Part shown: piece by piece, positions 3,329 through 37,326 of the stretch | Numbering within the stretch: the first letter of the stretch is position 1 | Layout of the letters: the number at the start of each line of letters is the position of its first letter | Source: Verrucomicrobiota bacterium | GTDB lineage: Bacteria; Verrucomicrobiota; Verrucomicrobiia; Limisphaerales; UBA9464 | Assembly: GCA_043732975.1 (NCBI GenBank) | Contig: JAYTHD010000138.1 | Location: 1 to 37,326, forward strand | Length of the DNA stretch: 37,326 nt | Reading direction: 5' to 3' | The notes under the pieces: generated by a model | What the model saw: only the letters and a program-made list of their open reading frames with translations | The model's database searches: none | What the model was told of the DNA's origin: nothing | Translations under genes and position numbers: made by a program

Positions 3329-3337
3329 GGGGTTCGT

Positions 3338-4121: not shown

Positions 4122-4160
4122 GTTTTTTACGCCTCACTGTTTTTATATCGGAACACACCC

Positions 4161-4553: not shown

Positions 4554-4598
4554 GTCTGGTTTTTACCACCGGAGCACCTTTCGCCGGGTGCCCCGCCC

Positions 4599-4627
4599 GC
4601 CGCATCGAATTCCGATGCGGCTTTTTT
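4599..4627 (+). terminator. rho-independent terminator of rplM-rpsI
   Basis: 9-bp stem gccgcatcg / cgatgcggc with loop aattc, immediately followed by tttttt (4622-4627), about 45 nt after the rpsI stop. Confidence 0.8.
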
Positions 4628-4754
4628 CGTTTTCGAGGGGTGCGAGACGCTGGGGCCGCGCGGAACAAAGCGCCGGGACCCTGGAATCGAAATGGACCTT
4701 TTTATCCACGCAACCCTCTCTTTTCTTTACCCGGACGATGGTCAATGCTCTCCC

Positions 4755-5495: not shown

Positions 5496-5549
5496 TCGCG
5501 CGCGGTCCGAAAACTCCCGGCGGTGGTGGATTTCAGGTGTCCCGGGAAA

Positions 5550-5575
5550 GCCGCCGGCGCGAGCCGGACGGCGGC
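5550..5575 (+). terminator. weak terminator-like hairpin after the sigma factor gene
   Basis: 7-bp stem gccgccg / cggcggc with a 12-nt loop, followed by ctttc. Weak U-tract. Confidence 0.3.
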
Positions 5576-5610
5576 CTTTCATTCCCCTGTTCATGGTCTA
5601 GCCTCTGCCC

Positions 5611-6477
5611 ATGAACGATAAAAAGTCCGACACCACGATGGCCGTTTTCCTGGACCTTGAAAACATTGCCCTCGGGGCTCGGGATGCCCGGTTTCCTCGA
5701 TTTGATATCCAGAAGCTGCTCGAGCGCCTCCTGCTCAAAGGTCACATCGTCGTCAAAAAGGCCTATTGCGATTTTGACCGCTACAAGGAGTTCAAGCGCG
5801 ATCTGCACGAAGCCGCTTTTGAAATGATCGAAATTCCCCACCTGCGCCTCTCCGGAAAGAATTCGGCGGACATCCGCATGGTCGTGGACGCCCTCGACCT
5901 CTGCTACACCAAGGGCCATGTCGACACCTTTGTGATCATCAGCGGGGATTCGGATTTTTCACCCCTGGTCAGCAAATTGCGGGAGAATGACAAGACGGTG
6001 ATCGGCGTGGGCGTCAAAAATTCGACTTCCGATCTTTTTCTCAACAACTGCGACGAATTCCTGTACTACGACGATCTCGTGCGGCGCGAGCCGTCGAAGG
6101 CGCGCCAGCAATCCGCTGCGCGACCCGCGTCGGCCGCACCTGCCTCCACGACAGTGCGCCCGGGAACTTCGGCTCCGGCTCCCGGCGCCCCCCCGGAATT
6201 GGATCCCAGCTCACCGGGCGTGGCCTCGCTGGACAAGGCGCTCGAACTCGTCAGCGAAACCATCGATGCCCTGGCGGAAGAGCGCGCCGACGATGAGCAC
6301 ATCTGGGGCTCCATGGTGAAGCAGGCGCTGAAACGCCGGCATCCCGGCTTCAACGAACGCGCTCACGGCTTCAAGTCGTTCAACGATTTGTTGCTGGAAG
6401 GCCAGCGCCGCGGACTGATGCGGCTGTTTGTGGACGAGAAGAAATCCGGCGCCTACCGCGTCCTGCCGGTCGAATAA
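5611..6477 (+). CDS. NYN (LabA-like PIN) domain protein with C-terminal OST-HTH/LOTUS-like domain
   Basis: MAVFLDLENIA...KKAYCDFDRY...GKNSADIRMVVDALD...FVIISGDSDFSPLVSKLRENDKTVIGVG is the NYN/LabA signature. A Pro/Ala-rich linker is followed by a roughly 70-aa helical C-terminal domain (WGSMVKQALKRRHPGFNERAHGFKSFNDLL) typical of OST-HTH. Confidence 0.85.
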   Translation: MNDKKSDTTMAVFLDLENIALGARDARFPRFDIQKLLERLLLKGHIVVKKAYCDFDRYKEFKRDLHEAAFEMIEIPHLRLSGKNSADIRMVVDALDLCYTKGHVDTFVIISGDSDFSPLVSKLRENDKTVIGVGVKNSTSDLFLNNCDEFLYYDDLVRREPSKARQQSAARPASAAPASTTVRPGTSAPAPGAPPELDPSSPGVASLDKALELVSETIDALAEERADDEHIWGSMVKQALKRRHPGFNERAHGFKSFNDLLLEGQRRGLMRLFVDEKKSGAYRVLPVE

Positions 6478-6536
6478 GAGTGCGGGCCATCCCGCCGACC
6501 GCTGAGTTCCCCTCGTGGCGCTGCACCCAGGACCCG

Positions 6537-7577
6537 TCAAAAGTCAAACTGGTCCACGTTTTCCTTGGTAAACAGGAACGGTTTTCCCAGCAGGAGATTG
6601 TCGCCGCGGATTTCAATCCGGCCGAGTTTTCCGGCTTCGTATTCGGTGGCGCCCGGCTTGAGTTTTCCGTCGGCCAGGCTCTTGGCGGCGTGCAGGGTCA
6701 GATAGCCCAGGTCCACCGTCTTCCAGAGAATCACACCCTGGGTGACACCTTCCTTCAGGTAGCGCCGGTTCTCACTCGGCAGGCCGAGCCCAATCACTTT
6801 GACCTGACCGGCCTTGCCGGCCTGTTTGACGGCTTCCGCCGCACCCGGCACCGCCGGCGAGCAGATCGCCAGGATCAATTTCAGATTCGGATAGGCGCTC
6901 AACAACGTCGTGGCTTCGCTTTGCGCCTTGTCCTTGAGATCATCACACGGCCGCAACGCCACCATCTTCAGTCCGGGATAATTACCGGACCGCCGGGCCT
7001 CAATGTGTTTTTGCCACTCGTTCATGTTGGCCGCCGTCAACGACGCGGTGATGATGGCGAACTCACCGGTGGGACCGATCTGTCGGGCGGCCTCATCCAT
7101 CAAGGCCTGGCCGATGCCCTCCGGCGTCGCCTGATTGACAAAAAACGACCGGGCGTCGGGGGCGGCATCGGAATCGAAGGTCAGGACTTTGATGCCCTGG
7201 GTCTGGGCCTTGCGCAAGGCGGTGGAGATGCCGTCACGATTCTCACAGGCGACCGCAATGACATCGACACCCAGCGTGATCCAGTTCTCGACGATCTCGT
7301 TTTGTTTGGCCGGATCGGGATTGACCGGGCCGTCGAAGATCAATTCGACTCCCAACTCCTTGGCCGCCATTTCGGCACCCTGTTTGCAGGAAACGAAGTA
7401 AGCATTGCCCTTCGACTTGGGCATCAGCGCCACGGTCACGCGCCTTCCGGCGGCGGGCGTAGTCCGGGGGGAATCGGACTTGCTACAACCCACCAACACC
7501 TGGAGCAGCAATAGGACCGAGGAAACGTACAGGAGTCGGGCGCCACGCTGCGCCAGGCGATGCCATAGGGAGATCAT
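6537..7577 (-). CDS. sugar ABC transporter substrate-binding lipoprotein (RhaS/LsrB-like, probable rhamnose-binding)
   Basis: Signal peptide with lipobox (LLLLQVLVGC). Periplasmic-binding-protein type I body (KGNAYFVSCKQGAEMAAKELGVELIFDGP..., KVLTFDSDAAPDARSFFVNQA). Last gene of the rhaA-ABC operon. Confidence 0.85.
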   Translation of the reverse strand: MISLWHRLAQRGARLLYVSSVLLLLQVLVGCSKSDSPRTTPAAGRRVTVALMPKSKGNAYFVSCKQGAEMAAKELGVELIFDGPVNPDPAKQNEIVENWITLGVDVIAVACENRDGISTALRKAQTQGIKVLTFDSDAAPDARSFFVNQATPEGIGQALMDEAARQIGPTGEFAIITASLTAANMNEWQKHIEARRSGNYPGLKMVALRPCDDLKDKAQSEATTLLSAYPNLKLILAICSPAVPGAAEAVKQAGKAGQVKVIGLGLPSENRRYLKEGVTQGVILWKTVDLGYLTLHAAKSLADGKLKPGATEYEAGKLGRIEIRGDNLLLGKPFLFTKENVDQFDF

Positions 7578-7661
7578 TCGACAAGTGGAGCGCAGGAAAC
7601 CAGCGCGTGCCAGTGGGAATCAAATCGCCGAGACAACCGCACACCGCAGGAGCGTCCCTGG

Positions 7662-8645
7662 TCATCGTTCCGGCCGTCCCCGTCGCGCCTGCCAACCGGC
7701 CAGCCCGCGCCTCCCCGCCAACGCCACCAGCAAGAGAACGCCGGTGAGCAGACCGGAAAGTTCCGCGCCGTGGCTCATGGTCCAGGGCACCCGGCTGAGA
7801 CCGTTGTTCAACACAGCGAGCGTCGCCACACCCGCGAGCGTGCCACCCACCGAACCACTGCCACCAAAAATGCTCGCCCCGCCCAGAACCACCGCGGTGA
7901 TCGCTGCCAGTTCGTACCCCATTCCCGCGTCGGCCTTGGCCGTGCCCAATCGCGCCGTGTAGGTCAGTGCCGCCACCGCCGAAAGCGTGCCGCTCAAAAC
8001 GTACACAAGCCCCAGGCGCCGCTCGACGGGCAACCCGGCGTAGCGCGAACCCTCGGGCGAATAGCCAAGGGAACGGAACGATCGTCCCAAGTGGGTTTGA
8101 TGCACCAGCAACCCGACGCCCACGATCGCCACCAGACAGACCCAAGCCTGCGTCGGGAGGCTCAGAAGACGTCCCTGGCCCAGCTGCAGGAAACTCTCCG
8201 GGAAATGGGTGAAGGCATCCGTGCCCCGCGTCAGCGCCTCCGCCAAACCGCGAAAGAGGGAATACGTCCCCAGCGTCACGATGAGCGGCGGCAGGCGCAG
8301 GGAGGTGATGAGCACCGCATTGAATCCACCGGCGCCGGCTCCCAGCAATAGCGTCGCCAGCGCCGCCACCGGCCATGGCCAGCCCGCATCACGCCAAAGC
8401 GCTCCGAACACCACGGCGCCGAGCCCCAGCACGGAACCCACCGACAGATCGATCCCGCCGGTCAGGATCACGGGCACCAGCGCCAGGGCGAGCAATCCCA
8501 GTTCCACCGAATGGCGAACGATGTTTTCAATATTGTCGGCGGTCCCAAAATTCCGTCCGAACAATTGAAACAGCGCCACCTCCAACCCGAGCACAAACAG
8601 GAGGACGTATTCCGGCCGGAAGCCACCACGCGCACGTCCATTCAT
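7662..8645 (-). CDS. sugar ABC transporter permease (RbsC/AraH-type)
   Basis: 327-aa polytopic membrane protein. Its start overlaps the upstream permease stop (ATGA at 8642-8645). Confidence 0.85.
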   Translation of the reverse strand: MNGRARGGFRPEYVLLFVLGLEVALFQLFGRNFGTADNIENIVRHSVELGLLALALVPVILTGGIDLSVGSVLGLGAVVFGALWRDAGWPWPVAALATLLLGAGAGGFNAVLITSLRLPPLIVTLGTYSLFRGLAEALTRGTDAFTHFPESFLQLGQGRLLSLPTQAWVCLVAIVGVGLLVHQTHLGRSFRSLGYSPEGSRYAGLPVERRLGLVYVLSGTLSAVAALTYTARLGTAKADAGMGYELAAITAVVLGGASIFGGSGSVGGTLAGVATLAVLNNGLSRVPWTMSHGAELSGLLTGVLLLVALAGRRGLAGWQARRGRPER

Positions 8646-9652
8646 GGCGTCCTCCCGGGTGCAGGAGCCGCACCGGATCTAACCTTCGATCCATCTGTTG
8701 AACCGATTGCGCCCTCCGGACGCACCGCTGCCGCCCGGCGTTGCCAACCGTCCGTCATCGCCGCCAGCAGGATCACCGCACCCTGAATCGCCTTGTCCCA
8801 ATAGGGCTTCACACCGAGATAGGTCATCGCCGGACCAATGCAGGTCAGCAGGAGAAACCCGGCCAGCACACCCCAAAGATTTCCGCGCCCCCCCGAGATC
8901 GCCACGCCACCGACCACCGCCGCGGCGATCGCCTCCAACTCCAACTGTCGCCCGGTGCCCGGATCCACCTGCGGCGCCTGCACGAGATTCAGTATGGCCG
9001 CCAAACCCGTCAGTCCGCCGAGCAGGACAAACGTGCCAAAAGTCGTGAACCGGGGATGCAATCCCGCCAAGCGGGCCGCTTCGAAATCCGAACCGACCGC
9101 GAGCAAATACCTTCCCGCAGAAAGTCCTCGCAAAGCGGTGGCCAGGCACAACCAGAGCGACAATACGAGTCCACAGATGACGGCCTGCGCGGCATTCATC
9201 GATAAGCCGAACCATTGAACGGCGTCGGGCAGGTTCACGAAGACCCCTTGTTGCGCCAACCGCAAAGCCTCCCGCCAGGTCACCAGCGTGGCGAGGGTCA
9301 CCACGATCGAGGGCAACCCGAGTCCCGCCACCAAGCCACCGTTCAACGCACCCGCGAGGGCCCCCAGCAGCACTGCCATTGGCACCACCGTCGCCAACGG
9401 CCAAGCGCGCTCCAGCAGCAACCCCGCCACCACACTGCAAACGGCAAACACTGATCCGACGGAGATGTCGATCTGCCGCGTCAACATCACCAGCGCCATG
9501 CCACCGGCCACCAGCAAACGCGGTGCCGCGGTTGTCAGCCGGGATAGCAGCGGTTGGCCGTCAAAAAAGTTTGGGGCCAACACAGCCAGCAATCCCAGCA
9601 GCAGGCTCAGGATCGCCGCCACGGTCCATTCACGAGACCAAAAGCGAATCAT
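8642..9652 (-). CDS. sugar ABC transporter permease (RbsC/AraH-type)
   Basis: 336-aa polytopic membrane protein. Its start overlaps the ATPase stop (ATGA at 9649-9652). Confidence 0.85.
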   Translation of the reverse strand: MIRFWSREWTVAAILSLLLGLLAVLAPNFFDGQPLLSRLTTAAPRLLVAGGMALVMLTRQIDISVGSVFAVCSVVAGLLLERAWPLATVVPMAVLLGALAGALNGGLVAGLGLPSIVVTLATLVTWREALRLAQQGVFVNLPDAVQWFGLSMNAAQAVICGLVLSLWLCLATALRGLSAGRYLLAVGSDFEAARLAGLHPRFTTFGTFVLLGGLTGLAAILNLVQAPQVDPGTGRQLELEAIAAAVVGGVAISGGRGNLWGVLAGFLLLTCIGPAMTYLGVKPYWDKAIQGAVILLAAMTDGWQRRAAAVRPEGAIGSTDGSKVRSGAAPAPGRTP

Positions 9653-11244
9653 GCGTCCATCGCCTCCCTTCCCAGCTCGGAGGTTGCGGGCGCCACCGAA
9701 CCGTTCCCCTGCCCCAACGCCGCCGCCATCACCTCGGCGCCTTCCGCGCCCCCGGGAAATTCCGCCACCACGGTGCCGCCCCGCATCACGAGCAGTCGAT
9801 CACTCAATGCCAGGACTTCCGGCAGATCGCTGGAGATCAGGATCACCGCCAGACCGGCATCGGCCTGATCGCGGATCCACCGGTGGATTTCCGCCTTCGC
9901 CCCCACATCCACGCCCTGCGTCGGCTCATCGAGGATCAAGACCGATGGCTCCGTCGCCAGCCAGCGCGCCAGCGCCACCTTTTGCTGATTGCCGCCACTC
10001 AGTGAACTGACCGGCGTGTCCACACCCGTCACCTTGATGGCGAACTGAGCGACCATCCGCTCCGCCAGTCGCCGCTCCGCACCCCGGCGCAACCAGGTTC
10101 CGGGAAACAGCCGCCGATGCAGCGCGAGTGAAATGTTGGCGGCCACCGACATTTCCTGGATCACGCCATGCCGCCGACGGTCCTCCGGCACGTAGGCCAA
10201 CCCCAACGCCACCGCCGCCGCGGGCGACGTCACGGACACCTTTTCCCCGCGCAGCAAAATCTCACCGTGATCGGCCGGAGTGATCCCGAACAACGTGCGC
10301 GCCAGTTCGGTGCGGCCGGCACCGACGAGGCCGGCGAACCCGAGGATTTCGCCCGAGCGCACTTCAAAATCGATCGTGTGAATGCCGCTGCGCCGGCAAT
10401 GGAGCCGACGCACCGACAGCACCGGTTCTCCGGGGATTCTCTGGCGTGCGCATCGCTCCAGGCGGACTTCACGGCCCACCATCATTTGTATGAGGGTTGT
10501 CTCACTCAGGAATTCTCCGGATTCATCGGCGGCCGGAGTTTCTCCGGAACTCCGCGGCGAAATTGGGCGAACCTGTCGCGTTCCCACGCTGGCGCCGTCG
10601 CGCAAAACCGTCACGCGGTCCGCGAGCGCGAAAATCTCTTCGAGACGATGGGAAATGTAAATGATGCCCGTACCGCCCGCGCGCAGTTCGCGCACGACGG
10701 CGAAAAGCCGTTCCTGCTCCCGGCGCGTCAGTGAGGCAGTGGGTTCGTCCATGATGACCACGCGGGCGCCCGCACCCACGGCCGCCGCGATCTCGACCAA
10801 CTGCTGCTCCGGCATGGAGAGCGCGCGCACCTCCGTGTCCGGATCCAGCTCCGTCCCGACGCGTCGCAGCAATGCCTGCGCCCGCTCCCGGCGGGCCCGC
10901 CAGTCGATCCGCCGGAACGGCGCCACCGGTTCCCAGCGGAGCGCCAGATTCTCGGCGACGCTCAAATCCGGGAACAACGCCGGTTGTTGATAAATGCAGG
11001 CGACACCCGACGCATGCGCCCGGCTCGGATTCAAGGGCATCACCGATTGACCTCCGAGGGCGATCGTTCCCCCGTCCGGCTGGAGCGCACCGGTGACGAT
11101 TTTGATCAATGTCGATTTCCCCGCGCCATTCTCCCCAAGCAACGCGTGCACCTCGCCCGGATAAAGATCAAACGAAACGCCGCGCAACGCCTGGACGGCG
11201 CCGAACGATTTCGTGATTCCAGCAAGTTCCAGCCAGGGCCTCAC
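9649..11244 (-). CDS. sugar ABC transporter ATP-binding protein, duplicated ATPase domains
   Basis: First Walker A is GENGAGKST. The second NBD has GLVGAGRTELA and the signature LSGGNQQKV, with D-loop ILDEPT. The 531-aa two-domain architecture resembles RbsA/RhaT. A short Ser/Pro/Glu-rich insert lies between the domains. Confidence 0.9.
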   Translation of the reverse strand: MRPWLELAGITKSFGAVQALRGVSFDLYPGEVHALLGENGAGKSTLIKIVTGALQPDGGTIALGGQSVMPLNPSRAHASGVACIYQQPALFPDLSVAENLALRWEPVAPFRRIDWRARRERAQALLRRVGTELDPDTEVRALSMPEQQLVEIAAAVGAGARVVIMDEPTASLTRREQERLFAVVRELRAGGTGIIYISHRLEEIFALADRVTVLRDGASVGTRQVRPISPRSSGETPAADESGEFLSETTLIQMMVGREVRLERCARQRIPGEPVLSVRRLHCRRSGIHTIDFEVRSGEILGFAGLVGAGRTELARTLFGITPADHGEILLRGEKVSVTSPAAAVALGLAYVPEDRRRHGVIQEMSVAANISLALHRRLFPGTWLRRGAERRLAERMVAQFAIKVTGVDTPVSSLSGGNQQKVALARWLATEPSVLILDEPTQGVDVGAKAEIHRWIRDQADAGLAVILISSDLPEVLALSDRLLVMRGGTVVAEFPGGAEGAEVMAAALGQGNGSVAPATSELGREAMDA

Positions 11245-18520: not shown

Positions 18521-18606
18521 GGTAGGATACCCAAGTGGCCAACGGGGGCAGACTGTAAATCTGCTGGCTTACGCCTTCACTGGTTCGAATCCAGTTCCTA
18601 CCACCA
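18521..18606 (+). tRNA. tRNA-Tyr (anticodon GTA), class II with long variable arm, CCA encoded
   Basis: Folded by hand. Acceptor GGTAGGA/TCCTACC, 3-bp D stem CCC/GGG, anticodon stem GCAGA/TCTGC with loop CTGTAAA (GTA at 18555-18557). Variable arm TGGCTTACGCCTTC, T arm ACTGG-TTCGAAT-CCAGT, discriminator A plus CCA. Confidence 0.95.
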
Positions 18607-18754
18607 TTCGCCTCCGCGCACGATGGACGGGCGGCGCCTCGGGCCGGAGTTCACCGGTTCGATTCGCACGGGAGTCGCCCCGCGCCGATCCAATCTGGAG
18701 CGCCCCGCCGAATCCTTCCTCGCCTTGGGCGCGCATCCCGCCAGAGTCACCGGC

Positions 18755-21004: not shown

Positions 21005-23752
21005 TCAGCCCGTATCGTTCCCGGATCCCAGTTGGCCCCACCACTGGTGATAAAGCCGCTCGAGTGTTTCCCGGGGATCCTCCACCAGCAGCGCTTCCTT
21101 GATGCGGGTGGCGTACATGCCGAACGAGAGCGGCGGCACCCGCGGGACAACGCGCGAGCGGATCGGCCGTTGGTGTTCCGCCAGGTCCCGCAGGTAGGCC
21201 TCCGCGCGGGCGCCATCCAGGAAGCTGTGCTCCGCGTCACGCCGCGCTTCCCGCAACAGCACGTGATCGGGCTCGTGTTGCACCAATACATTGAAGATGA
21301 CCTCGGTGCTCCATTGCAATTTGCGCACCGATTTGCGGGCGTCGAAGTGGTTGCGATAAACCATCAACCCGGTCTGGGCGGCGGATCGAAAATGATATTT
21401 CAACAGATCCGAACGCCCCAGCGCTTCCGCGAGATCCGCTCGAAAATTCTCCGGCGCCAACAGCCCGGGCAATTCCGCAGCAGTCAGCGTCTGGTTTTCG
21501 GCGACACTCAGGACGAACCCGTAATCATCCGTCGTGGCAATGGCATTGCCGCCGCGCAGTCGGCTCAATCGAAGCCCGACCACCCGCGACAACGCATCAT
21601 TGGCCGCCCGGCCGATGAGGCTGTGGAAGAAGTAGTGGCGCGTCGCCGGCGGTGCGGAAAGGGGCAAGGGATTCTCCGGGACGCGGGCCGGGCGTCCGGG
21701 GCTGCGGGACTTCGCGGGTACGGTGATCGCCGCCATCGCCAATTGCGCCGTGGCGGAGACCGTCGGCTCCCCCGCTTCGCGCCGTCCGATCCGCGCCCGC
21801 GTCGGGCGCTCCGGCGGCGCGGGCACTTCGATCAACTCCTCCACCAGCAGAAAATCTCCCGTGGGAATCTCACTGACGCCGTGTTGTGCCGCATGGACCC
21901 GAAGGATCACGGCGGCGTTATTCGATCCGCATTCCAAGCGCCGTCCAATCCACTGTTGCAGCACCGTGGCGGACTCACGGGCGTCCAGTCTTTGGCGCAG
22001 TTCGGTGCGAAAGGCGCGGATTTCACGGGCCACGCGATTCGCCAAGGGAAACTTGTTCGCCCCCCAGCGCGGCACCGTGGGCACGGCTCCGTCCGCCCGC
22101 TCCACCCAGCATTCCATCACGCCCACCCGCAGCAATCGCACCGGCCGGCCGCTCAAGGTGAATACATCGCCGGCCCGCAGGGAGCGCAGAAACCCTTCCT
22201 CCACCGATCCCAACTGCGTCGATTGCAACAACACGCGGACGGCACCGTCGTCCGGAATGGTGCCCACATTTTGCAGGAGATCGCGCCGGGTGGCACCCGC
22301 GCGGGTTTCAAAAACGCCGTCGCCCAATACCAGCTTGCCGAACAATTCGGCATACTGCTCACGCAAGGCCTTGCCGCCGCCGGCGAGGAAGTCCAGGACG
22401 GCATCAAAATCGGCCCGGGACAATTCCCGATACGGCCAGGCCCGGCGGACTTGTGCGTAGGCCTCGTCATTTTTTTGCTCACCCGTGCAACCCAATCCCG
22501 CCAGGTGTTGCGCCAGCACATCCAGCGGTGCGATCGGAATCCGCAGGGCGTCCAACTGCCCCCGGCGCGCCAACAGCGCCGTGGCGCAGCATTCCACGAG
22601 ATCGCCGACATTCGTCGCCATCAGCAATCCCCGGCTGATTTCCTGCGGACCATGCCCGGCTCTTCCGGCCCGTTGCAACGCCTTGCTGACTCCCTTGGGC
22701 GTGGCCAGCATGACCACCTGATCGATGCAGCCGATGTCGAGCCCGAGTTCCAGCGACGTGGAACAGACCACGGCGCGCAATTCCCCGAGCTTAAGCCGAT
22801 CCTCCACCTCGAGACGCACGGCCCGGTCCAGCGAGGCGTGATGACATTCGATGGCCAGATCCGGGAGCGCTGCCTTCAGCCAGTAGGTGGCGGATTCGGC
22901 GCCGCTCCGCGTGTTGGTGAAGACCAGGGTCGTCCGGTTGGCGCGGATCAATTTGGCCAGTTCCCCCATCAATCGTTCACCGCTGAACCCCGCCGGCGGA
23001 TAGGGTTCCCGCTGCAAGGGACTGAACACCGCGAGTTCGATTTGTTTGGCCGGGGCGACCTGCACCAGGCGGCACGCGCGCTCCGCACCCACGAGGAACG
23101 ATCCGGCCTCCGCGAGCGGATGCACGGTCGCCGAGAGTCCGATGCGTTGCAGCCGGGCCGGCGGGATTTGGCAGGCTTCCAGGCGCTCCAGTGCCAGCGT
23201 GAGCTGCGTGCCCCGCTTGTTTTCCGCCAGCGCATGCACCTCGTCCACGATCACCCAGCGCACCGTGGCCAGTCGGGACAACCACCGTGACTGGCTGAGC
23301 ATCACACACAGGCTTTCCGGAGTGGTCAGCAATATTTCCGGAGGTGTGGCAAACTGACGGGCGCGCTCCGTTTCCGGAGTGTCCCCGTTTCGCAATCCCA
23401 CGCGGATCGGCGGTCGGGGATGGTCCGCCTCCGGATAGATTTCCCGCAGGGGGCCGGCCAGATTCTTTTCCAGGTCATATCCCAGGGCGCGCAACGGGGA
23501 GAGGTAGAGACAGCGAACGCCCGGCGCCGCGGACGCTTCAGGTTCCGCAGGCGTCGCCGCCAGGGCATGCAGCACGGCGAGAAACGCCGCGAGCGTCTTG
23601 CCGGTGCCGGTCGGTGAAACGATCAGCACATTTTCACCGGCGACGATCCGGGGCCACGCGGCCACCTGCGCCGGCGCCGGCTCGGGGAAACGGGCATCAA
23701 ACCAGCGGGTCACCGCCGAAGCGCCCAGGATGGAAACCGCGGAAACGCTCAT
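21005..23752 (-). CDS. Lhr-like DEAD/DEAH-box helicase with C-terminal DEAD-associated domain
   Basis: From ATG 23752 (MSVSAVSILG..., 915 aa): Walker A SPTGTGKT, DEVH box VIVDEVHAL, motif VI QRAGRAGH, and a long C-terminal domain as in Lhr-core proteins. The 249 codons upstream in the track ORF are antisense to the next gene. Confidence 0.88.
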   Translation of the reverse strand: MSVSAVSILGASAVTRWFDARFPEPAPAQVAAWPRIVAGENVLIVSPTGTGKTLAAFLAVLHALAATPAEPEASAAPGVRCLYLSPLRALGYDLEKNLAGPLREIYPEADHPRPPIRVGLRNGDTPETERARQFATPPEILLTTPESLCVMLSQSRWLSRLATVRWVIVDEVHALAENKRGTQLTLALERLEACQIPPARLQRIGLSATVHPLAEAGSFLVGAERACRLVQVAPAKQIELAVFSPLQREPYPPAGFSGERLMGELAKLIRANRTTLVFTNTRSGAESATYWLKAALPDLAIECHHASLDRAVRLEVEDRLKLGELRAVVCSTSLELGLDIGCIDQVVMLATPKGVSKALQRAGRAGHGPQEISRGLLMATNVGDLVECCATALLARRGQLDALRIPIAPLDVLAQHLAGLGCTGEQKNDEAYAQVRRAWPYRELSRADFDAVLDFLAGGGKALREQYAELFGKLVLGDGVFETRAGATRRDLLQNVGTIPDDGAVRVLLQSTQLGSVEEGFLRSLRAGDVFTLSGRPVRLLRVGVMECWVERADGAVPTVPRWGANKFPLANRVAREIRAFRTELRQRLDARESATVLQQWIGRRLECGSNNAAVILRVHAAQHGVSEIPTGDFLLVEELIEVPAPPERPTRARIGRREAGEPTVSATAQLAMAAITVPAKSRSPGRPARVPENPLPLSAPPATRHYFFHSLIGRAANDALSRVVGLRLSRLRGGNAIATTDDYGFVLSVAENQTLTAAELPGLLAPENFRADLAEALGRSDLLKYHFRSAAQTGLMVYRNHFDARKSVRKLQWSTEVIFNVLVQHEPDHVLLREARRDAEHSFLDGARAEAYLRDLAEHQRPIRSRVVPRVPPLSFGMYATRIKEALLVEDPRETLERLYHQWWGQLGSGNDTG

Positions 23753-23833
23753 GCTGAAGGCAACCGGAGATGCGGATCGCGCCCCGGAGACACTGGCCCT
23801 TGGCAGCGGGGATTTCCGCGCCACCCTTGGCCC

Positions 23834-24739
23834 ATGATCTCCCGCCGCACGTTTCTCACCGGCTCTGCGCTCGCCTCGGTTGCCCCCTGGGCGCAGGCGG
23901 TGGAGGCCTTCCATCGGACGGGCGACACCACCCCGCCCCGCCTGCGCATGTCGCTGGCGGCATATTCCTTTCGCAACGATCTCGCGGTCAAAAAGGACGG
24001 CACCCCCTCGAAGCTGGATCTGTTTTCGTTCATCGATTTTTGCGCCACGAACAATGTGCCCGGCGCGGAGCTGACCAGCTATTACTTTAGGCCCAATCCC
24101 GACGACGCCTACCTGCTCGCGCTCCGCCGACACGCCCACCTTCGTGGCGTCACCGTGAGCGGCACCGCCATCGGCAACAATTACACGTTGCCCCACGGAC
24201 CGAAGCGCGACACGGAAATCGCGAACACGAAACAATGGATCGAACGCGCGGCCGTCCTCGGCGCGCCCCACATTCGCGTCTTCGCCGGCGCTCCCGCCAA
24301 GGAACAGACCCTGGCCGAGGCCAAGAAGCTCTGCGTGGAAGCGCTGGAGGAATGCGGGGAGGCCGCCGGAAAACATGGCATTTTCCTCGGGGTCGAAAAC
24401 CATGGCGGCATCGTCGCGGAAGCCGCGGACCTGCTCGATATCGTCAAGGCGGTCCAATCGCCCTGGGTCGGCATCAATCTGGATACCGGTAATTTCCACA
24501 CCGACGACCCCTGGGGAGACCTCGCCAAGTGCGCTCCCTATGCCGTCAATGTGCAGTACAAGGGCTACATCCGCGCCCGGGCCGCCAAGGCAGCGGAGTC
24601 ACCGGATCCGGTTCGCACGGCCCGGATGTTGAAGGACGCGGGCTATTCCGGATGGGTCGCCCTGGAGTATGAGTTGAGCGGGGACCCGTGGAAAAAAGTC
24701 CCGTCCATGCTCGCCGATCTGCAAGCGGCGCTGGGCTGA
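23834..24739 (+). CDS. Tat-exported xylose-isomerase-like TIM-barrel protein (sugar phosphate isomerase/epimerase family)
   Basis: MISRRTFLTGSALASVAPWAQA twin-arginine signal. The barrel carries IRVFAG, LGVENHGG and GINLDTGNF. 301 aa. Confidence 0.85.
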   Translation: MISRRTFLTGSALASVAPWAQAVEAFHRTGDTTPPRLRMSLAAYSFRNDLAVKKDGTPSKLDLFSFIDFCATNNVPGAELTSYYFRPNPDDAYLLALRRHAHLRGVTVSGTAIGNNYTLPHGPKRDTEIANTKQWIERAAVLGAPHIRVFAGAPAKEQTLAEAKKLCVEALEECGEAAGKHGIFLGVENHGGIVAEAADLLDIVKAVQSPWVGINLDTGNFHTDDPWGDLAKCAPYAVNVQYKGYIRARAAKAAESPDPVRTARMLKDAGYSGWVALEYELSGDPWKKVPSMLADLQAALG

Positions 24740-29753: not shown

Positions 29754-30183
29754 AACCCACTTCAGCTTCGCAGAAGATGCCACTTTCGAAAGGCGGGATT
29801 CCAATCCGGATTCACAAGAGGCAATGGGGCCAAACATTGACGGTCGACAATCAAGTTGAACTTGGAGATTCCGCAGGTCTGGCGCGACGGAGGAAAGCGC
29901 TCAGGGGCAGGTGAATTCCCGCCCGAACGTTGCGCCCCACCTCAAGCCCTCTTCAATTCGGTCACCATGTAGAATGTCAATGTTTGAACCCATTGCCTTT
30001 TCTTCGGCTGGCCATCAATCAACCCCAAAAGATACTCACACCGCGTGGCCATCGGGTTGCTTCTTGCCGTGTGTTTCCTCGTGCAGGTAAGGGACTGGTA
30101 TCCGCTCCGCTGGTTGGCTCGGAGTCTTTGCTCCTTGCGGTCGCCTTGGTGCCGGGGCATTTAACCAATCAGTCTTAGGGTCA

Positions 30184-30977: not shown

Positions 30978-31006
30978 TCCTTCTCCGCGGAGCATCGAGA
31001 AGCCAC
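30978..31006 (+). repeat. short repeat S1 (core motif TTCCGCGGAGCrYCGAGAAGC)
   Basis: ttccttctccgcggagcatcgagaagcca. The same core occurs at 31341-31370, 32016-32046 and 32247-32275, all in the same orientation. Confidence 0.65.
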
Positions 31007-31194
31007 ATTTCTGCCCCTTAATTCCACGCCGACACCAAATCCGAGACGGCCTACCTCCGCGAAACCCCGGAGGTAAACGAAAGCGGCGACTTGGTGGTGC
31101 TCCCGCCACCGCTAAGCCCAGCTTCCCGCCTCGCTCATCCGGGCCGAACGCGAGCAAGGCTGAGCGGATCGACGTCGAGGCTAGCCAACCCACC

Positions 31195-31378
31195 CAGAGG
31201 CCGCCCCACGCCCGTCGCGATTATCACCAATCCAAGACCCAAATAGTCTGCGGGTCCTCAAAAGCATTTGCGGCGCCGGCTCCATCGCCGCAGTCTGCCG
31301 GCAAATGCTCCCTTCCGCGAATGGCAAATCTCCCTTTCCGCGGAGCGCCGAGAAGCAAATTATTATCACTAACATTTC
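31195..31378 (+). repeat. long repeat R1 (about 140-bp high-identity core from 31239, weaker similarity upstream)
   Basis: Direct repeat of 32105-32295. The 47-nt block gcgggtcctcaaaagcatttgcggcgccggctccatcgccgca is identical in both copies. It contains the hairpin tgcggcg-N10-cgccgca and the S core motif. Confidence 0.85.
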
Positions 31379-31592: not shown

Positions 31593-31895
31593 GTGCACAG
31601 GAAACCGACCTGGATCTTCGCTGCGGGCCTCCTGTTGCTATTGCTATTCGTCGTCACGGCAAGTCATCGGCCTCGGCCGTCTTGGATTTCCTATCCTTCG
31701 CCAGAGCTCAAATGGGCGATGTGGCAGTCAGTCCTGATCGGTGCTGGTTGGGTCACCTATCATCTGCGAAGGCGCAGCAGTCCCGGATTGGAATCCTGGC
31801 TGCGGGCGGAATCCTGGCTGCGGGCGTTTTTGATTCCCGTTTTGCTGCTATTGGCTGCGATTTTGATCGCCTACTTTATTGAGAATTTGTTTTGA
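31593..31895 (+). CDS. possible small membrane protein (100 aa, about 3 TM), hypothetical
   Basis: GTG start. WIFAAGLLLLLLFVV, WQSVLIGAGWVTY and FLIPVLLLLAAILIAYFI are hydrophobic segments. It contains the in-frame duplicated hexapeptide ESWLRA. Bracketed by the S/R repeat modules. No homolog recognised. Confidence 0.4.
   Translation: MHRKPTWIFAAGLLLLLLFVVTASHRPRPSWISYPSPELKWAMWQSVLIGAGWVTYHLRRRSSPGLESWLRAESWLRAFLIPVLLLLAAILIAYFIENLF
31790..31825 (+). repeat. perfect 18-bp tandem duplication (ggaatcctggctgcgggc x2)
   Basis: Units at 31790-31807 and 31808-31825 are identical and in frame with the small ORF. Confidence 0.95.
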
Positions 31896-32015: not shown

Positions 32016-32046
32016 TTCCTTTTCCGCGGAGCGCCGAGAAAGCAAA
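32016..32046 (+). repeat. short repeat S2
   Basis: ttccttttccgcggagcgccgagaaagcaaa, which carries the same core as S1 and as the cores inside R1 and R2. Confidence 0.65.
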
Positions 32047-32104
32047 CTCCTATCAGTAAATCTTGAAGCTTGGCCCCGTGGAAAACGATGCCGCAGGCGC
32101 CTTC

Positions 32105-32295
32105 GCCGACGTCCCGCCGCCCGCCGCCCGCTGCCCGATTTCGCCCACGCCACCACCCAAATGGTCCGCGGGTCCTCAAAAGCATTTGCGGCGCCGGCTC
32201 CATCGCCGCAACCTGCCTTCAAATGTACCAATCCGCGAAAGCAAATCTCCCTTTCCGCGGAGCATCGAGAAAGCATATTCTTATCAATATTCCTG
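32105..32295 (+). repeat. long repeat R2, ending 5 nt before the ATG of the giant ORF
   Basis: Aligns with 31195-31378. The core 32156-32295 is roughly nine-tenths identical to 31239-31378 by hand alignment. Confidence 0.85.
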
Positions 32296-32299
32296 GACA

Positions 32300-35200
32300 A
32301 TGAAGGCGAAGCTTGATTCTCCAGGTGAAGGGCTGAATTCATACCATCGTGAGGAGGGGCATTCTCCCATTGAAGAGGAACCAAGTGAACGTGGGCTGAC
32401 TGCCGCAACCTATCCCAAAAGTCGATTGTCTCCGGTCGGATGGCAAGCGAGGTTTTGGGCTGGAGCGATGATTCTATGGCAGGCGTGCGGCCTATCCCTT
32501 TTAGGCCAGCCCGTCGGCTGGCAAGGCCTTGACATTGGCAACGCCGACGTTAGCGGAAGCGAGAGCTACGTCGGCGGAGTGTGGACCATTACGGGAGCCG
32601 GTGCCGGTCTCTTCGGCAATTTCCATTACAATGCTCCCGATTCCGCTCACTACACCTATAGAGAAGCTTCGGGCGATGTCGAGATTGTGGCCAGGTTGGT
32701 CAGCATTTCCGGGGCGCCGCGCTCAGAGGTGGGGCTGATGTTGCGGGCGTCGACGGATGGGACAGCCGACATGGCTGCTGTCATGTTCGAGTACCAGTTT
32801 TATGATCTCAACAATTCCGACCCGAATTACCAGAACTTTGTGATTCAGTCGAACCGCCGCCTGGGGTTTTCATCGAACCCTTGGATCTACGACAACTACG
32901 TGGGCACAGCCCCACCAGTGAGCCCGCCGATTTGGCTAAAACTGATTCGCGTGGGCAACGACTATTCCGTGGCACGCTCGGAAGATGGGATCACATGGAC
33001 GTCCGTGGCCGATTACGGCGGGGACGCTTTTTTGGCCAGCGGCACGTTTGACATTGGCTTGTACGTCAGTAGTGGAGCAGCCGGGCAGTTAGCCACCGCG
33101 GTTTTCGACAACATCTACATCGGTCCACCGCGGCTCGCTTATCGGACGACTTGGGTGGGTAATTCGTTCAGCAGCTCCTCGGCACGATACGTTTCAGGCA
33201 ACCTGGCCGCGCTCTATGTGTCGCCGGACGGGACCTGCTACACCAATTCGGCCTACGATGAGGGTGGCGAAGCGGCCAAGATCTACAAAGACGGGCGGGT
33301 CGTCCGCAGTTTTACAGATAATGGGTTCTTCGGAAACAATGGTGTATCGGAAGGTTCAGTGACCGGAGACAGCCAATTCATTTACATTTTGGGTAATCGG
33401 GGCCTGCCATACCGGACGGACCTCCAGGGGAACAACATCCAACCAGTCACCCTGGGTACAGGGACGGGTCGCATCGGGGGCATGGCTGTCGGCAACGGGG
33501 AAATCTACTTCTCGGACGTGGATAACAATGTCATCCGCGTGGCGAGCGCGACCACGTTAACCGAGATACCTGACCGGGTATTCCCGTTCACGAGGCCTGG
33601 CCAGATGGCAGTGGATAGTCGTGGTGATTTGTGGATCATCCAGCGCGCCACCGACTACCCTAACAGCCTCGTTTTTCGTGCGCAGTATACGGCCGCTATA
33701 GTGTGTTATCATCCAGACGGCACATTCACGGGCAAACAGATTAGCGACATGGTGAATCCCGCAGCCTTGTGCTGGGATTCGCATGAGGACAGATTGCTGG
33801 TTTGCGAGAACGGACCAGACCAGAACATCCGCATCTATAATGGTCTGGCGACCGCTCCAGCCCTGAGCGGTACAATCGGGAGCACCGGCGGGCTATTCGC
33901 GGGAGGCGTGCCAGGGTTGCTCAACGATCCGAACGCAGGTGGCTACTTGCGGCTCTACGGCCCCAATGGGGTGGGGATGGATTCTGGGAGCAACATTTAT
34001 GTGTCCTGCAGTGGGGGTGGTTCGCACCTGCGCAAATTCGATCCTGCCGGCAACCTGGTGTGGAGCCTCTCGGGGCTGGAGTTTGTCAACTGCGGGGACT
34101 TCGATCCCGCCAGCGATGGTCAGGACGTTTACGAAGTGGACAAGCACATCCGACTGGACCTCTCTCAGAGCCCACTCGCCAGCGTCCCAGGCAGCGAGTG
34201 GAGTTACACCGGCTTCTCCTGGAACCCATTCGGATCTGAACCCGAGCTGCGCGGGAACCGCAGTACAATCGTCCGTCGGTTCGGTCCCGCCCAAAGCTTG
34301 TTCATGTGGTCGCAGTCGCAGAGTGTGGAGGATAATCAAGGCTATCCGGTCTATCGGTTCATCGGAGAGACGGCCATCCCCTGTGGAAAATTCGTGACCG
34401 GAACTCCAGACCAGAATCATTCCGTTCTTTGGGTGGACATCAACGGCGACCAAGTTCAGTCGCCAGACGAACAACTGACGTACTTGACACCGGGAGTCGG
34501 CTTTGCCAGCGCCTTGGATGTCGGCGCCAGTGGCGATCTTTATGCGCTATTTGCCGCGCATTACGACTGGGCCGCGGGGTTGGGATCCATCTTCCATGTT
34601 AGCTGTCGGGGCGTGTCGGCGTCCGGCGTACCTATCTATAGCGATGCACCTGGAGGCTACGACCAGACAGCCGTGCCGTCGTCAATCGCTTTCCCTAATC
34701 GGATACGCTACGACTCGTCCAGTGACGCGATGTACATTCTTGGGAATGATGCGAACCGGGCCCCCGTTCTGGGCCGATTTGACCAATGGAGCACCGGGAA
34801 CCCTGTCCAGCACTTCCTAATCAAACTTCCCACGCCTGAGACGAGCCCAGACTTTCTGTACTTCCCCCCTGACTATTCCTTTGGCCTGCCGTTTTCTTAT
34901 TTCGCCATGGATGTGGCGGGTGAGGCGGTTTTCGTGGGGGAACTCTGGGGTCCCATTCACGTCTTCAGCGCCGACACGGGCTTGCCGGTCACAATCCTCA
35001 ATCCTGGGCCCGAAGTTTCTGGAATCCAAGGCTGGATAGACATGTGGCATGGCGTGCGGGCATTTCACCGTTCCAACGGTGAATACCTGGTGTTGCGGGA
35101 AGATGCGGGGTATCGAGCGCGGAACTTGTTGTTCCGCTGGCCCCCAATGAACAACGCTGCTCCGAACCGGCCGCCTGTCTGGACTCAGTTCATCACAAAC

Positions 35201-37326
35201 AAAGTGGGCACTGCGGGAGTCCCATTCAGCTACACAATCCCGAACGGCGCCTTTAGCGATCCCGACGCGGGCCAGAATTTAAGCTACTCGGCGAGTGGGC
35301 TGCCGAACGGCATCTCTCTAGATCCCGAGTCCGGAGTTTTGAGTGGCAGTCCGTCTGCAACGGGGACTTACTTGGTGACGATTACCGCGACCGATAGCGT
35401 CACGCCTCCGGCGAGCGCCACGGCGCCCATGATTCTGGTGATTGTTGATCCGAACGTCACGCCATCTCTGCACGGCGACTCCATCCAGGTGCAGTGGGAT
35501 TATCCGGACATCCATACGGCGTTCGCTGCTGCGCAAAACTTCACGGTGCAATCTCCAGGCACGAGTGTCGTCTATAATAACGGCCAGTACAGTTACGATG
35601 TGACAGTTGCTGCTGACACGATAGTCGTGTCTCAATTTCAGGCGAATAACGGAACTCTGGGCGACAGCCCAGGCTATAGCGGCCCGGCGGGCAGTCCAGA
35701 CGGCGCGACTGATCCAGGAGTGACATTCAACGGGCTGGTGTTGACGGATGCAGTCCATGCATTCGGAACCGTAGCCGTTGTTACAGTCACCGGGCTGGCG
35801 GGGTGGGACCCGTCACGGCTCCTGGTCAACGGCTCCCAAATCGGACTCAACTTTATGGGATTAAGTCCGATCGAGGGCCAATCGGTTTTGGTGCTGCGCG
35901 TGCAGCCAGCGCCTCCAGTCCTGAGCATCACCGGTTTGCTCCCCGCTTCGGTCGCAGCCAATGGCGCGGACTTCATCCTCACCGTGAACGGCTCTGGGTT
36001 TGTCAACGGCTCGGTCGTGCTTCTAAATGGCTCAGCCCGGGCCACAGCCTATGTGAACAGCTCGCAACTCACGGCCCAGTTTACAACAGCGGACATCACG
36101 TCCGGCGCTGAGCTCGCCACGGCCCTGATCACGGTTGAGAATCCCTCTGCGGTTCAATCGAATCAGGCAGTATTGTCCATCGTTGGCTCGAACGTGAGCG
36201 CCGTTCAAAGCGGCACAGCGCCACCCGGACAGATCGCAATCGTCTCTACGGCGCCGACGGACGGCACTTCCGCCGGCGTTGCCGCCGCTTTGGATGCGGG
36301 CAACAGCTCTCAAACTGTGACCGTATCGGCTGCCACCTACGCCCGTGACCCTGTCACGAACAATACGATTAACGCCGGAGGGGGTTACGTTGACCTGCGG
36401 GTGTCCGGAGCCGACGCGACGGCCCAAATGGTGGCTCATTTTTATTACCCCAGCACGGTCACGGGAGCAGACGAGGATGCCCTGGTCCTCCTCTATTTTA
36501 GCGGCAGTGCCTGGGCGCCCGTATCGAGCAGCGGCGGCTTGGCCCCAATAAAGGACACCTCCGATAATCTTGACCGGTCGACTTCCGGAGGGCGTTTTAT
36601 CGTGACGTTCGACATGAGCAGCACGCCGGCTATTACTGACTTAGACGGAACCGTTTTTGCTCTCACGATTCCGTTTACAATGGTGACACCGGTTATTGCC
36701 TGGAATAATTTAGCAGCCATCTCCTACGGCACACCGCTCGGTGCAGCTCAGTTAAATGCTGCCGCAACAGATCCAACCACCGGCCTAAAGGTCGCTGGCC
36801 ATTTCAGCTACTCTCCGCCCGCGGGCACAGTCCTCGACGTTGGAAACGGACAAGCACTGAGCGTCACGTTCATACCCGCGGATCAAGACCACTACAACTC
36901 AGGCGCCGCCACCACGACCATAAACGTGACACGGACTGTCACCAGGGTCAGTCTTGCGGCATCGGTCAATCCAGCGTCCGTGAAGTCGCCAATCACCTTT
37001 ACTGTGACGATTACACCACCGGAAACGAGCGGAACCGTGCGCCTTGTGGATGGGACGGCGAATATCGGCGTTAGCTCCTTGGCGCAAGGCCAAACCAGCT
37101 TCAACACGTCGGCATTGGCGGTTGGCAACCATGACGTCCAGGCCATCTTCGATGGCACGGCACAGGCATTTGGGAGCAGCGCCACCATCGTCGAAACGAT
37201 CAAATCGACGCCGCCGGTGATCACGGCGTGTCCGGCAAACATCACAGTCCAAACCGGACCGGGCCGAACCACTTGCGATCAGGTGGCGACTTGGACGCCG
37301 CCTACGGCCAGCGACAACTGCACCTT
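32300..37326 (+). CDS. giant secreted multi-domain surface protein (lectin-like N-terminal module, NHL-like beta-propeller repeats, He_PIG/cadherin-like Ig, IPT/TIG, Ig-like repeats, HYR), 3' end beyond the window; NOT in the supplied ORF track
   Basis: I read the frame (codon starts congruent to 2 mod 3) line by line. There is no stop from TAA 32057-32059 to base 37326. The first ATG is at 32300; alternative starts are TTG 32426 and ATG 32468, just before a hydrophobic signal-like segment AGAMILWQACGLSLLG. The partial product is at least 1675 aa. Recognisable segments: GWQGLDIG...GDVEIVARLVSISGAPRSEVGLMLRAS (ConA-like lectin module); GEIYFSDVDNNVIRV, DSRGDLWII and GSNIYVSCSGGGSHLRKFDPAGNLVW (NHL-like); PFSYTIPNGAFSDPDAGQNLSYSASGLPNGISLDPESGVLSGSPSATGTYLVTITATD (He_PIG); PVLSITGLLPASVAANGADFILTVNGSGF (IPT/TIG); PPVITACPANITVQTGPGRTTCDQVATWTPPTASDNC (HYR). 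Confidence 0.9.
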   Translation, partial: MKAKLDSPGEGLNSYHREEGHSPIEEEPSERGLTAATYPKSRLSPVGWQARFWAGAMILWQACGLSLLGQPVGWQGLDIGNADVSGSESYVGGVWTITGAGAGLFGNFHYNAPDSAHYTYREASGDVEIVARLVSISGAPRSEVGLMLRASTDGTADMAAVMFEYQFYDLNNSDPNYQNFVIQSNRRLGFSSNPWIYDNYVGTAPPVSPPIWLKLIRVGNDYSVARSEDGITWTSVADYGGDAFLASGTFDIGLYVSSGAAGQLATAVFDNIYIGPPRLAYRTTWVGNSFSSSSARYVSGNLAALYVSPDGTCYTNSAYDEGGEAAKIYKDGRVVRSFTDNGFFGNNGVSEGSVTGDSQFIYILGNRGLPYRTDLQGNNIQPVTLGTGTGRIGGMAVGNGEIYFSDVDNNVIRVASATTLTEIPDRVFPFTRPGQMAVDSRGDLWIIQRATDYPNSLVFRAQYTAAIVCYHPDGTFTGKQISDMVNPAALCWDSHEDRLLVCENGPDQNIRIYNGLATAPALSGTIGSTGGLFAGGVPGLLNDPNAGGYLRLYGPNGVGMDSGSNIYVSCSGGGSHLRKFDPAGNLVWSLSGLEFVNCGDFDPASDGQDVYEVDKHIRLDLSQSPLASVPGSEWSYTGFSWNPFGSEPELRGNRSTIVRRFGPAQSLFMWSQSQSVEDNQGYPVYRFIGETAIPCGKFVTGTPDQNHSVLWVDINGDQVQSPDEQLTYLTPGVGFASALDVGASGDLYALFAAHYDWAAGLGSIFHVSCRGVSASGVPIYSDAPGGYDQTAVPSSIAFPNRIRYDSSSDAMYILGNDANRAPVLGRFDQWSTGNPVQHFLIKLPTPETSPDFLYFPPDYSFGLPFSYFAMDVAGEAVFVGELWGPIHVFSADTGLPVTILNPGPEVSGIQGWIDMWHGVRAFHRSNGEYLVLREDAGYRARNLLFRWPPMNNAAPNRPPVWTQFITNKVGTAGVPFSYTIPNGAFSDPDAGQNLSYSASGLPNGISLDPESGVLSGSPSATGTYLVTITATDSVTPPASATAPMILVIVDPNVTPSLHGDSIQVQWDYPDIHTAFAAAQNFTVQSPGTSVVYNNGQYSYDVTVAADTIVVSQFQANNGTLGDSPGYSGPAGSPDGATDPGVTFNGLVLTDAVHAFGTVAVVTVTGLAGWDPSRLLVNGSQIGLNFMGLSPIEGQSVLVLRVQPAPPVLSITGLLPASVAANGADFILTVNGSGFVNGSVVLLNGSARATAYVNSSQLTAQFTTADITSGAELATALITVENPSAVQSNQAVLSIVGSNVSAVQSGTAPPGQIAIVSTAPTDGTSAGVAAALDAGNSSQTVTVSAATYARDPVTNNTINAGGGYVDLRVSGADATAQMVAHFYYPSTVTGADEDALVLLYFSGSAWAPVSSSGGLAPIKDTSDNLDRSTSGGRFIVTFDMSSTPAITDLDGTVFALTIPFTMVTPVIAWNNLAAISYGTPLGAAQLNAAATDPTTGLKVAGHFSYSPPAGTVLDVGNGQALSVTFIPADQDHYNSGAATTTINVTRTVTRVSLAASVNPASVKSPITFTVTITPPETSGTVRLVDGTANIGVSSLAQGQTSFNTSALAVGNHDVQAIFDGTAQAFGSSATIVETIKSTPPVITACPANITVQTGPGRTTCDQVATWTPPTASDNCT

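Follow-up and report, generated by a model that had tools for sequence, protein, structure and literature searches.

Giant genes, a class set apart by a coding length above 5 kb (Reva & Tummler, 2008, as applied in Kohn et al., 2016, PMC5177795), number 45–60 in the richest planctomycete genomes analysed, and more than 90% of them are said to encode surface proteins or polyketide synthases/nonribosomal peptide synthetases (PMC5177795). The subject of the present work is a gene of comparable length that runs off the end of a 37,326-nt contig of a Verrucomicrobiota bacterium (JAYTHD010000138.1, assembly GCA_043732975.1; this whole stretch is hereafter called the window), where it occupies 32300–37326 on the + strand. 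An earlier note on this DNA, made from the sequence alone, had described its translation as a mosaic of lectin, propeller and Ig-like domains. That description proves largely accurate but missed that residues 74–950 form, by alignment, one family module, here called the head, and that the rest is a variable stalk.

The gene resembles the giant genes of the Planctomycetes–Verrucomicrobia–Chlamydiae (PVC) group in its length (at least 5,027 nt), its PVC host, its Ig-like and lectin-type modules and its location in a lower-G+C, lineage-specific stretch, and differs from them in that it just reaches 5 kb within the window, its full size lying beyond. It fits the known class of PVC giant surface-protein genes, and membership is unremarkable given how many of these the richest planctomycete genomes hold. 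In the earlier designation 'giant surface protein', the first word holds for a gene of more than 5 kb, whereas the second presumes an anchor beyond the window.

Two further kinds of protein invite comparison. Two double beta-propeller glycan-binding proteins of Bacteroidota, PorZ (PDB 5m11) and BT4663 in its periplasmic sensor domain (PDB 4a2l), have tandem, extracytoplasmic beta-propellers like those modelled here, PorZ with a beta-sandwich as well, and are matched by Foldseek at E ~1e-11 to 1e-10. Identity is however 7–11%, TM-scores are 0.21–0.28, there is no sequence-level relationship and the blades are NHL-like in our protein, so that the resemblance is an analogy of architecture, not membership. 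The 'choice-of-anchor Z' (CoaZ) repeat proteins (NCBIfam NF058597) have repeats 40–54% identical to one in the window protein (P0032, P0043, P0053, P0056, P0059, P0060), but they hold four to six of them, mostly ~420 aa apart, whereas the window shows one.

A gene of at least 5 kb, open at the window end

Read with codon starts congruent to 2 mod 3, the + strand has its final stop, TAA, at 32057–32059 and is then open through base 37326, just as the earlier note had found; we found no internal stop or frameshift on following the large open reading frame (ORF) to that base. The stop-free run comprises 1,755 codons, for which the chance is ~4e-23 (at ~2.9% stops per codon), and the remaining two + frames have 65 and 75 stops beyond position 30000. 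The ORF was missing from the ORF track because the lister omits ORFs running off either end of the window, which is the reason (want of a stop) that had been suspected. As the gene is cut by the window end, all sizes given for it are minimum values (at least 5,027 nt and at least 1,675 aa).

Codon-position composition gives a coding signature, with G+C at third positions (GC3) of 0.665 versus 0.512 at second positions, and this signal persists over the entire ORF, although its GC3 is lower than that of the UvrD, Lhr and DUF1501 genes of the window (0.74–0.79). Strong protein homologues cover more than half of the ORF, residues 48–960 being 68% identical to the closest of them, P0001. The ORF is thus a real gene encoding the first 1,675 residues of a big multidomain protein, and the short ORFs listed at 32.4–37.3 kb, which lie on the opposite strand or in a different frame, are spurious by-products of high G+C.

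Residue 1 was set at the first in-frame ATG (32300), with TTG 32426 and ATG 32468 as alternative starts. The in-frame stretch 32060–32299 that precedes it is almost certainly non-coding, because it is a repeat, made up of 104 nt and the 42-nt motif described below, that recurs at 31218–31372 outside any ORF, and because its codon-position G+C is flat (0.60/0.575/0.625). At the other end, GTDB representative genomes gave no match when scanned by peptide pattern with the entire protein, nor did metagenome contigs with the exact 50-mer from the window end, and the best identity in the protein collection was 68%. The window stops short of the C-terminus and of any anchor, which are not recoverable from the public data searched.

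The head is a conserved module that also stands alone

In a BLAST comparison of the large protein that covered 90 homologue hits, residues 74–950 aligned end to end with P0001 (68% identity), with P0002–P0007 (44–55%) and with P0016, P0019, P0025 and P0027, whereas beyond residue 950 the homologues diverged completely. About 15 stand-alone proteins of 1,036–1,090 aa also aligned to the head span and stopped exactly at residue 949. Those of ~1,050–1,090 aa (P0008–P0015, P0020–P0024) are annotated 'hypothetical protein' and have the head, with its invariant residues, at 37–44% identity over residues 74–950. They stop at 949, where the window protein goes on for at least 725 more residues of Ig-like stalk. 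An exhaustive HMMER search of 1.84 billion cluster representatives returned 4,517 relatives at E<=1e-3, of which 508 were at E<=1e-30. Many of these relatives are ~700-aa proteins (P0166, P0194, P0232 and others) that consist of the propeller region alone and keep its invariant residues; all are annotated 'hypothetical protein', and Pfam finds in them no more than one NHL repeat or an SGL match below threshold. Named genomes with the head module include those of Lentisphaerota, Armatimonadota, Pirellulales, Chthoniobacterales, Alistipes and Tepidisphaeraceae. For finding loci by pattern, a closer subset of homologues was used, the wider alignment being too divergent. An NCBIfam scan of the window-protein head gave no match and, judged by these alignments, residues 74–950 are one conserved module for which there is neither a Pfam nor an NCBIfam model.

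The N-terminal part of the head, residues 75–275 (32522–33124), is a predicted ConA-like or DUF1349-like beta-sandwich. Residues 16–216 of the AlphaFold2 (AF2) model are all-beta, with predicted local distance difference test (pLDDT) values mostly of 81–96. DUF1349 is a domain of the ConA-like lectin/glucanase superfamily. Its Pfam model (PF07081) scored below the cut-off of 32.4, at 15.6 bits when the whole protein was scanned and 21.3 bits when the region was scanned by itself, while more than 20 DUF1349-annotated proteins matched the region in BLAST with E down to 1e-22, including repeated DUF1349-annotated domains in P0029, P0030, P0038–P0042 and P0045 (E 1e-22 to 1e-10). Despite the sub-threshold Pfam score, the beta-sandwich is likely homologous to DUF1349, and the ConA-like lectin proposed in the earlier note finds indirect support in both the BLAST matches and the model.

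The propeller region follows at residues 282–947 (33143–35140), its N-terminal part being NHL/SGL-like. In the AF2 model of residues 60–955, built on an alignment of 26 homologues (pLDDT 86.8, predicted TM-score 0.89), the beta-sandwich is succeeded by ~47 strands forming ~12 blades, which would most simply make two propellers of about six blades each. Pfam NHL (PF01436) scored 19.6 bits in the window protein, just under the cut-off of 20, and 22.7–32 bits in homologues; Pfam SGL scored 23.8 bits, below its cut-off of 26.3. The family profile matched NHL propellers among the PDB sequences at E 1e-8 to 1e-3, in keeping with the NHL-like repeats that had been claimed, and DFPase weakly. Attempts to put a name to the head led no further: phmmer against PDB sequences together with the family profile gave only weak NHL, DFPase or fn3 matches, and Foldseek against PDB gave only generic multi-propeller proteins (LRP4, LRP2, teneurin, WD40 pairs, PorZ and BT4663) at low TM-scores (0.2–0.33).

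Conservation was computed over 46 sequences of the family, the most distant at ~33% identity, and reaches at least 90% at fourteen polar positions (E321, D561, D602, D620, R686, D713, E724, Y780, R801, Y804, D809, D914, E934 and R946); D713 and E724 belong to a conserved WxDxNGDxxxxxxE loop, residues 711–724, that resembles DxDxDG calcium loops. Most stand-alone forms of 1,036–1,090 aa differ from the window protein by an insert of ~90–200 aa between query residues ~415 and 420, which Pfam identifies as malectin in six of them and which the window protein does not have. In P0008, malectin lies at residues 407–495, within an insert spanning 385–545 that interrupts a propeller-region loop in the N-terminal half of that region. 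A JGI metagenome contig (L011) encodes, in tandem, a stand-alone head-family protein of 1,081 aa (2814–6059) and after it one of 1,070 aa (6103–9315) with only a faint DUF1349 signal, a pair that looks like a local gene duplication.

A variable stalk of Ig-like domains and orphan stretches

What homologues carry beyond residue 950 is MBG_2, HYR with fn3, MBG_3 with PKD, or a cadherin-like domain with Big_9, and by this comparison the C-terminal stalk is variable between them. The stalk of the window protein begins with a putative Ig domain, He_PIG (PF05345), at residues 959–1038 (35174–35413; Pfam 57.5 bits, cut-off 24, E 1.8e-15), the He_PIG/cadherin-like domain of the earlier note. An IPT/TIG-type Ig-like domain, corresponding to a 'choice-of-anchor Z' repeat, was likewise where it had been placed, at residues 1206–1292 (35915–36175): NCBIfam NF058597 (CoaZ_rpt_PGGG) matched at 69.5 bits (cut-off 30, E 2e-19), and Pfam TIG (PF01833), unreported in the whole-protein scan, reached 26.4 bits versus a cut-off of 20.9 when residues 1206–1297 were scanned alone. 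A bacterial Ig-like domain, Big_3_5 (PF16640), occupies residues 1554–1630 (36959–37189; 44.7 bits, cut-off 35.5, E 2e-11). He_PIG, TIG/CoaZ and Big_3_5 all pass curated cut-offs, bearing out the claim of a coherent multi-domain translation.

Between these domains lie orphan stretches that total ~325 residues. Orphan region 1, residues 1039–1205 (35414–35914), is the ~150-aa unassigned segment already pointed out: it has no Pfam match at E<=10 and no homologue at E<=0.01 in a search of 5.8 billion proteins, and its single-sequence AF2 model (pLDDT 31) is unusable. P0036 had appeared to span it, where BLAST showed only noise, and the only self-BLAST signal is of its second half with the following TIG domain, a weak one (E 0.54). 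Orphan region 2, residues 1293–1450 (~158 aa; 36176–36649), has no Pfam match at E<=10 either and, on self-comparison, no similarity to the rest of the protein; the sole alignment over it is one long gapped alignment with P0041. The Ig-like repeats proposed downstream of TIG are present as Big_3_5 and as a widespread ~85-aa Ig-like repeat at residues ~1462–1545 (36683–36934; ...ISYGTPLGAAQLNA...SYSPPAGTVL...), but the span so labelled includes the orphan residues 1293–1450. The ~85-aa repeat was recognized by BLAST, being 40–49% identical to repeated units in P0035, P0041, P0081, P0082 and P0089; it has no Pfam match above threshold and no Pfam model of its own.

A HYR domain, said to begin exactly at the window end, plausibly starts at 37205–37326 (PPVITACPANITVQTGPGRTTCDQVATWTPPTASDNCT), where it would be cut by that end. 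The last 41 residues (PPVITACPANITVQ...TWTPPTASDNCT) are collinear with residues 1606–1642 of P0003, at a pairwise E of only 0.12, and correspond to the first half of a HYR domain that Pfam verifies in that protein (1607–1684); the ~40 visible residues gave no match at E<=10 to Pfam HYR (PF02494; an 81-position profile, cut-off 21.7 bits), so that the claim stands unconfirmed.

The N-terminal segment and export

A signal-like segment lies at residues ~43–69 (32426–32506; LSPVGWQARFWAGAMILWQACGLSLLG), with a Kyte–Doolittle hydropathy maximum of 1.2–1.4 over residues 52–69 (FWAGAMILWQACGLSLLG), immediately before the conserved QPxGWQG with which the family module starts. Since all homologues have a hydrophobic N-terminal segment at the equivalent position, one of them terminates in a Por_Secre_tail of the type IX secretion system (T9SS), and the window protein carries a 'choice-of-anchor' repeat, we infer that the large protein is exported. 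Use of TTG 32426 as the start would yield a conventional 27-residue signal peptide.

A possible glycan-directed head and the alternatives

We lean, with some reserve, towards a large protein that is secreted and probably tethered to the cell, with a head that binds or degrades glycans, borne on a variable Ig-like stalk. The head (residues ~74–950) would bind, and possibly cleave, an extracellular glycan, at a ligand site that invariant acidic, arginine and aromatic propeller residues and the one calcium-loop-like motif would form. The stalk would space the head from the cell surface or from an anchor beyond the window, in the order He_PIG, orphan, TIG/CoaZ, orphan, 85-aa Ig repeat, Big_3_5 and then, probably, HYR and further modules past the window end. 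The link to glycans is proposed because of the ConA-like domain, the malectin insert of stand-alone homologues, the setting of one homologue and the gene content of the window. In an Alistipes metagenome-assembled genome, a propeller homologue follows a gene for a glycoside hydrolase family 125 (GH125) alpha-mannosidase, with GH106, a sugar transporter of the major facilitator superfamily and 2-keto-3-deoxy-6-phosphogluconate aldolase nearby. The window itself also encodes a BNR_2 sialidase-like protein, RhaA, a sugar-type ATP-binding cassette transporter and a GDSL esterase with sub-threshold matches resembling carbohydrate-binding modules 6 and 35.

Several observations weigh against this reading. 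No enzyme or lectin of known specificity matched the head, either by sequence (Pfam, NCBIfam and PDB searches) or in Foldseek against PDB, where the matches were generic multi-propellers with TM-scores of 0.2–0.33. The carbohydrate-related locus of Alistipes is a single example, and five other homologue neighbourhoods contained no conserved or carbohydrate-related partner, nor was any gene neighbourhood conserved across six loci of the head family. A start at ATG 32300 would make the n-region of the signal peptide unusually long and acidic, and attachment to the surface is an assumption, with the anchor lying beyond the window. As to a place among the CAZy or lectin families, these searches gave the head no recognizable catalytic or sugar-binding site and no match to a characterized family; the support is contextual, from the malectin insert of homologues, the GH125 neighbour in one genome and the ConA-like domain. 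That it is nevertheless a new family of carbohydrate-active enzymes or lectins, secreted as such and cell-tethered in the version encoded here, we regard as unlikely. If it were so, the invariant Asp/Glu/Arg/Tyr set would serve for catalysis or sugar binding, on the propellers or between them. The family itself counts at least 508 clusters (E<=1e-30) and occurs in Verrucomicrobiota, Planctomycetota, Lentisphaerota, Armatimonadota and Bacteroidota.

The alternative that fares best is a structural or adhesive surface protein, an adhesin or S-layer-like fibre whose propeller head would act in protein–protein or surface adhesion and have neither glycan specificity nor catalytic activity, as is assumed of most large surface proteins in the PVC group; this we consider possible though doubtful. 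A stalk of He_PIG, TIG, Big_3_5 and HYR-like Ig domains is typical of bacterial adhesins, the Foldseek matches (LRP, teneurin and WD40-type) are protein-interaction propellers, the head matched no catalytic family, and surface proteins share with PKS/NRPS the fraction (above 90%) of giant genes said to encode one or the other (PMC5177795). Against this, the head also occurs by itself, in proteins of 700–1,090 aa without a stalk, which would be unusual for a fibre adhesin; the malectin insertion and the ConA-like domain point toward carbohydrate; and many invariant charged residues are kept at ~33% identity.

A polymorphic-toxin or Rhs/teneurin-like delivery protein, with a lectin and NHL propeller that would target a cell and a YD shell and toxin domain beyond the window, is very improbable. 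Foldseek did match teneurins, proteins that combine an NHL propeller with a YD shell, three proteins that share DUF1349/TIG with ours (P0029, P0030 and P0042) carry RHS repeats (PF05593, PF25023), and the C-terminus of the large protein does lie outside the window. Yet RHS/YD domains occur in none of the whole-head homologues (P0001–P0027), the RHS proteins have only the common DUF1349 module in common with the window protein, and the teneurin TM-scores are merely 0.22–0.23. A non-functional ORF, be it a pseudogene in decay or a chimeric assembly that happens to lack a stop as far as the contig end, hardly deserves credence either: the collections searched, of proteins (best 68% identity) and of genome and metagenome contigs, do not contain the exact protein, its GC3 lies below that of housekeeping genes nearby and orphan sequence is present, but these stand against the stop-free run, collinear and full-length domains, a head modelled confidently as one unit and coding GC3 along the whole ORF.

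A 42-nt motif upstream of the large gene

Within the 1.3 kb that precede the large gene there are four copies, all on the + strand, of a 42-nt motif, TCCyTTTCCGCGGAGCryCGAGAAAGCAnAyTnnTATCAnTA, at 30978–31019, 31331–31372, 32017–32058 and 32248–32289, the motif core having 4 matches versus 0.09 expected. The fourth copy (TCCCTTTCCGCGGAGCATCGAGAAAGCATATTCTTATCAATA) ends 10 nt before ATG 32300, and a longer duplication relates 31218–31372 to 32136–32289. Two JGI metagenome contigs contain near-identical copies: in L026, 23 nt separate the end of the core from the ATG of a DUF1501 gene, which is followed by a 934-aa gene with a PSCyt/PSD1-type look by eye, and in L018 the motif lies upstream of a gene for a HAF-repeat protein. 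Rfam gave no match at gathering score, only one at chance level (E 0.2), and inspection found no sigma-70 consensus. From its copies and their positions, the motif may be a promoter or leader element, lineage-specific, for genes of exported proteins.

Most metagenome matches to the core were rejected as further copies, 34 of 36 loci being an unrelated conserved coding gene. The core pattern CYTTTCCGCGGAGCRYCGAGAA lies inside the highly conserved and common coding sequence of these 34 loci (L015–L049), which is unrelated to the window motif, and as they show, exact-pattern matches need a check of their flanks. Between motif copies 2 and 3 there is a 100-aa ORF (31593–31895, + strand) with a GTG start and two or three hydrophobic segments, within which a perfect 18-nt tandem duplication (31790–31825) encodes ESWLRA twice; by its sequence it may be the gene of a small membrane protein. 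Further upstream, an inverted repeat of 34 nt (29816–29849 and 29968–30001), whose arms are 82% complementary and lie 118 nt from each other, overlaps with the beginning of the TPR gene (- strand, start 29837).

The surrounding locus

The PVC origin that had been assigned to the window agrees with its UvrD, whose best match is 94% identical (on an ENA contig) and most of whose named relatives, at 60–64% identity, are from Verrucomicrobiota or Pedosphaera (two are labelled Candidatus Limnocylindria), and with the presence of a DUF1501 protein. Synteny with two related loci, L052 and L053 (XerC-like integrase, UvrD, Lhr and AP endonuclease 2), stops at 24736, past which these run into mraZ/rsmH and the dcw cluster; the window continues with acyltransferase_3, an unknown gene (~450–465 aa), BNR_2, TPR, 1.5 kb of repeat-rich non-coding sequence and the large gene. 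The lineage-specific part of the window is therefore at least 12.6 kb long. Since, in addition, G+C drops from 0.61–0.67 to 0.57–0.59 from ~29 kb and GC3 of the large ORF is below that of the UvrD, Lhr and DUF1501 genes, 'accessory region' is a reasonable label for the surroundings of the large gene; whether that gene is the 'centrepiece' of the region, as the earlier note put it, is a matter of taste.

In the same part of the window, the 1,164-aa Lhr ORF (21005–24499, - strand) is over-extended at its 5' end, relatives having 926–929 aa and homology ending at 23761, and the extension overlaps a real AP_endonuc_2-type gene (23870–24736, + strand) whose product is 71% identical to that of L052. 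A close relative (L051, an ENA contig; 92–93% nucleotide identity on both flanks) carries, in the position of 18606–18704 of the window, an insertion of ~8.9 kb (1112–9980) exactly between tRNA-Tyr and uvrD, with a 174-aa gene and a gene for a 2,335-aa repeat protein without Pfam match. On comparison, the latter proved unrelated to the large protein described here. The tRNA-Tyr/XerC-like integrase site looks like a variable integration spot for large-protein genes.

Implications

For annotation, a real gene of at least 5 kb fills 32.3–37.3 kb of this contig. To the earlier description are added the unannotated head module, the variability of the stalk, a second orphan segment besides the one noticed, and a C-terminus that public data do not supply. 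A large extracellular multi-domain protein is to be expected in a Verrucomicrobiota genome, and the wider value lies only in the head, which is new as a conserved unannotated module, common in metagenomes and without a characterized member, that also occurs, in several phyla, as stand-alone and apparently secreted proteins of ~700–1,090 aa. Characterization of a single stand-alone member would annotate thousands of proteins.

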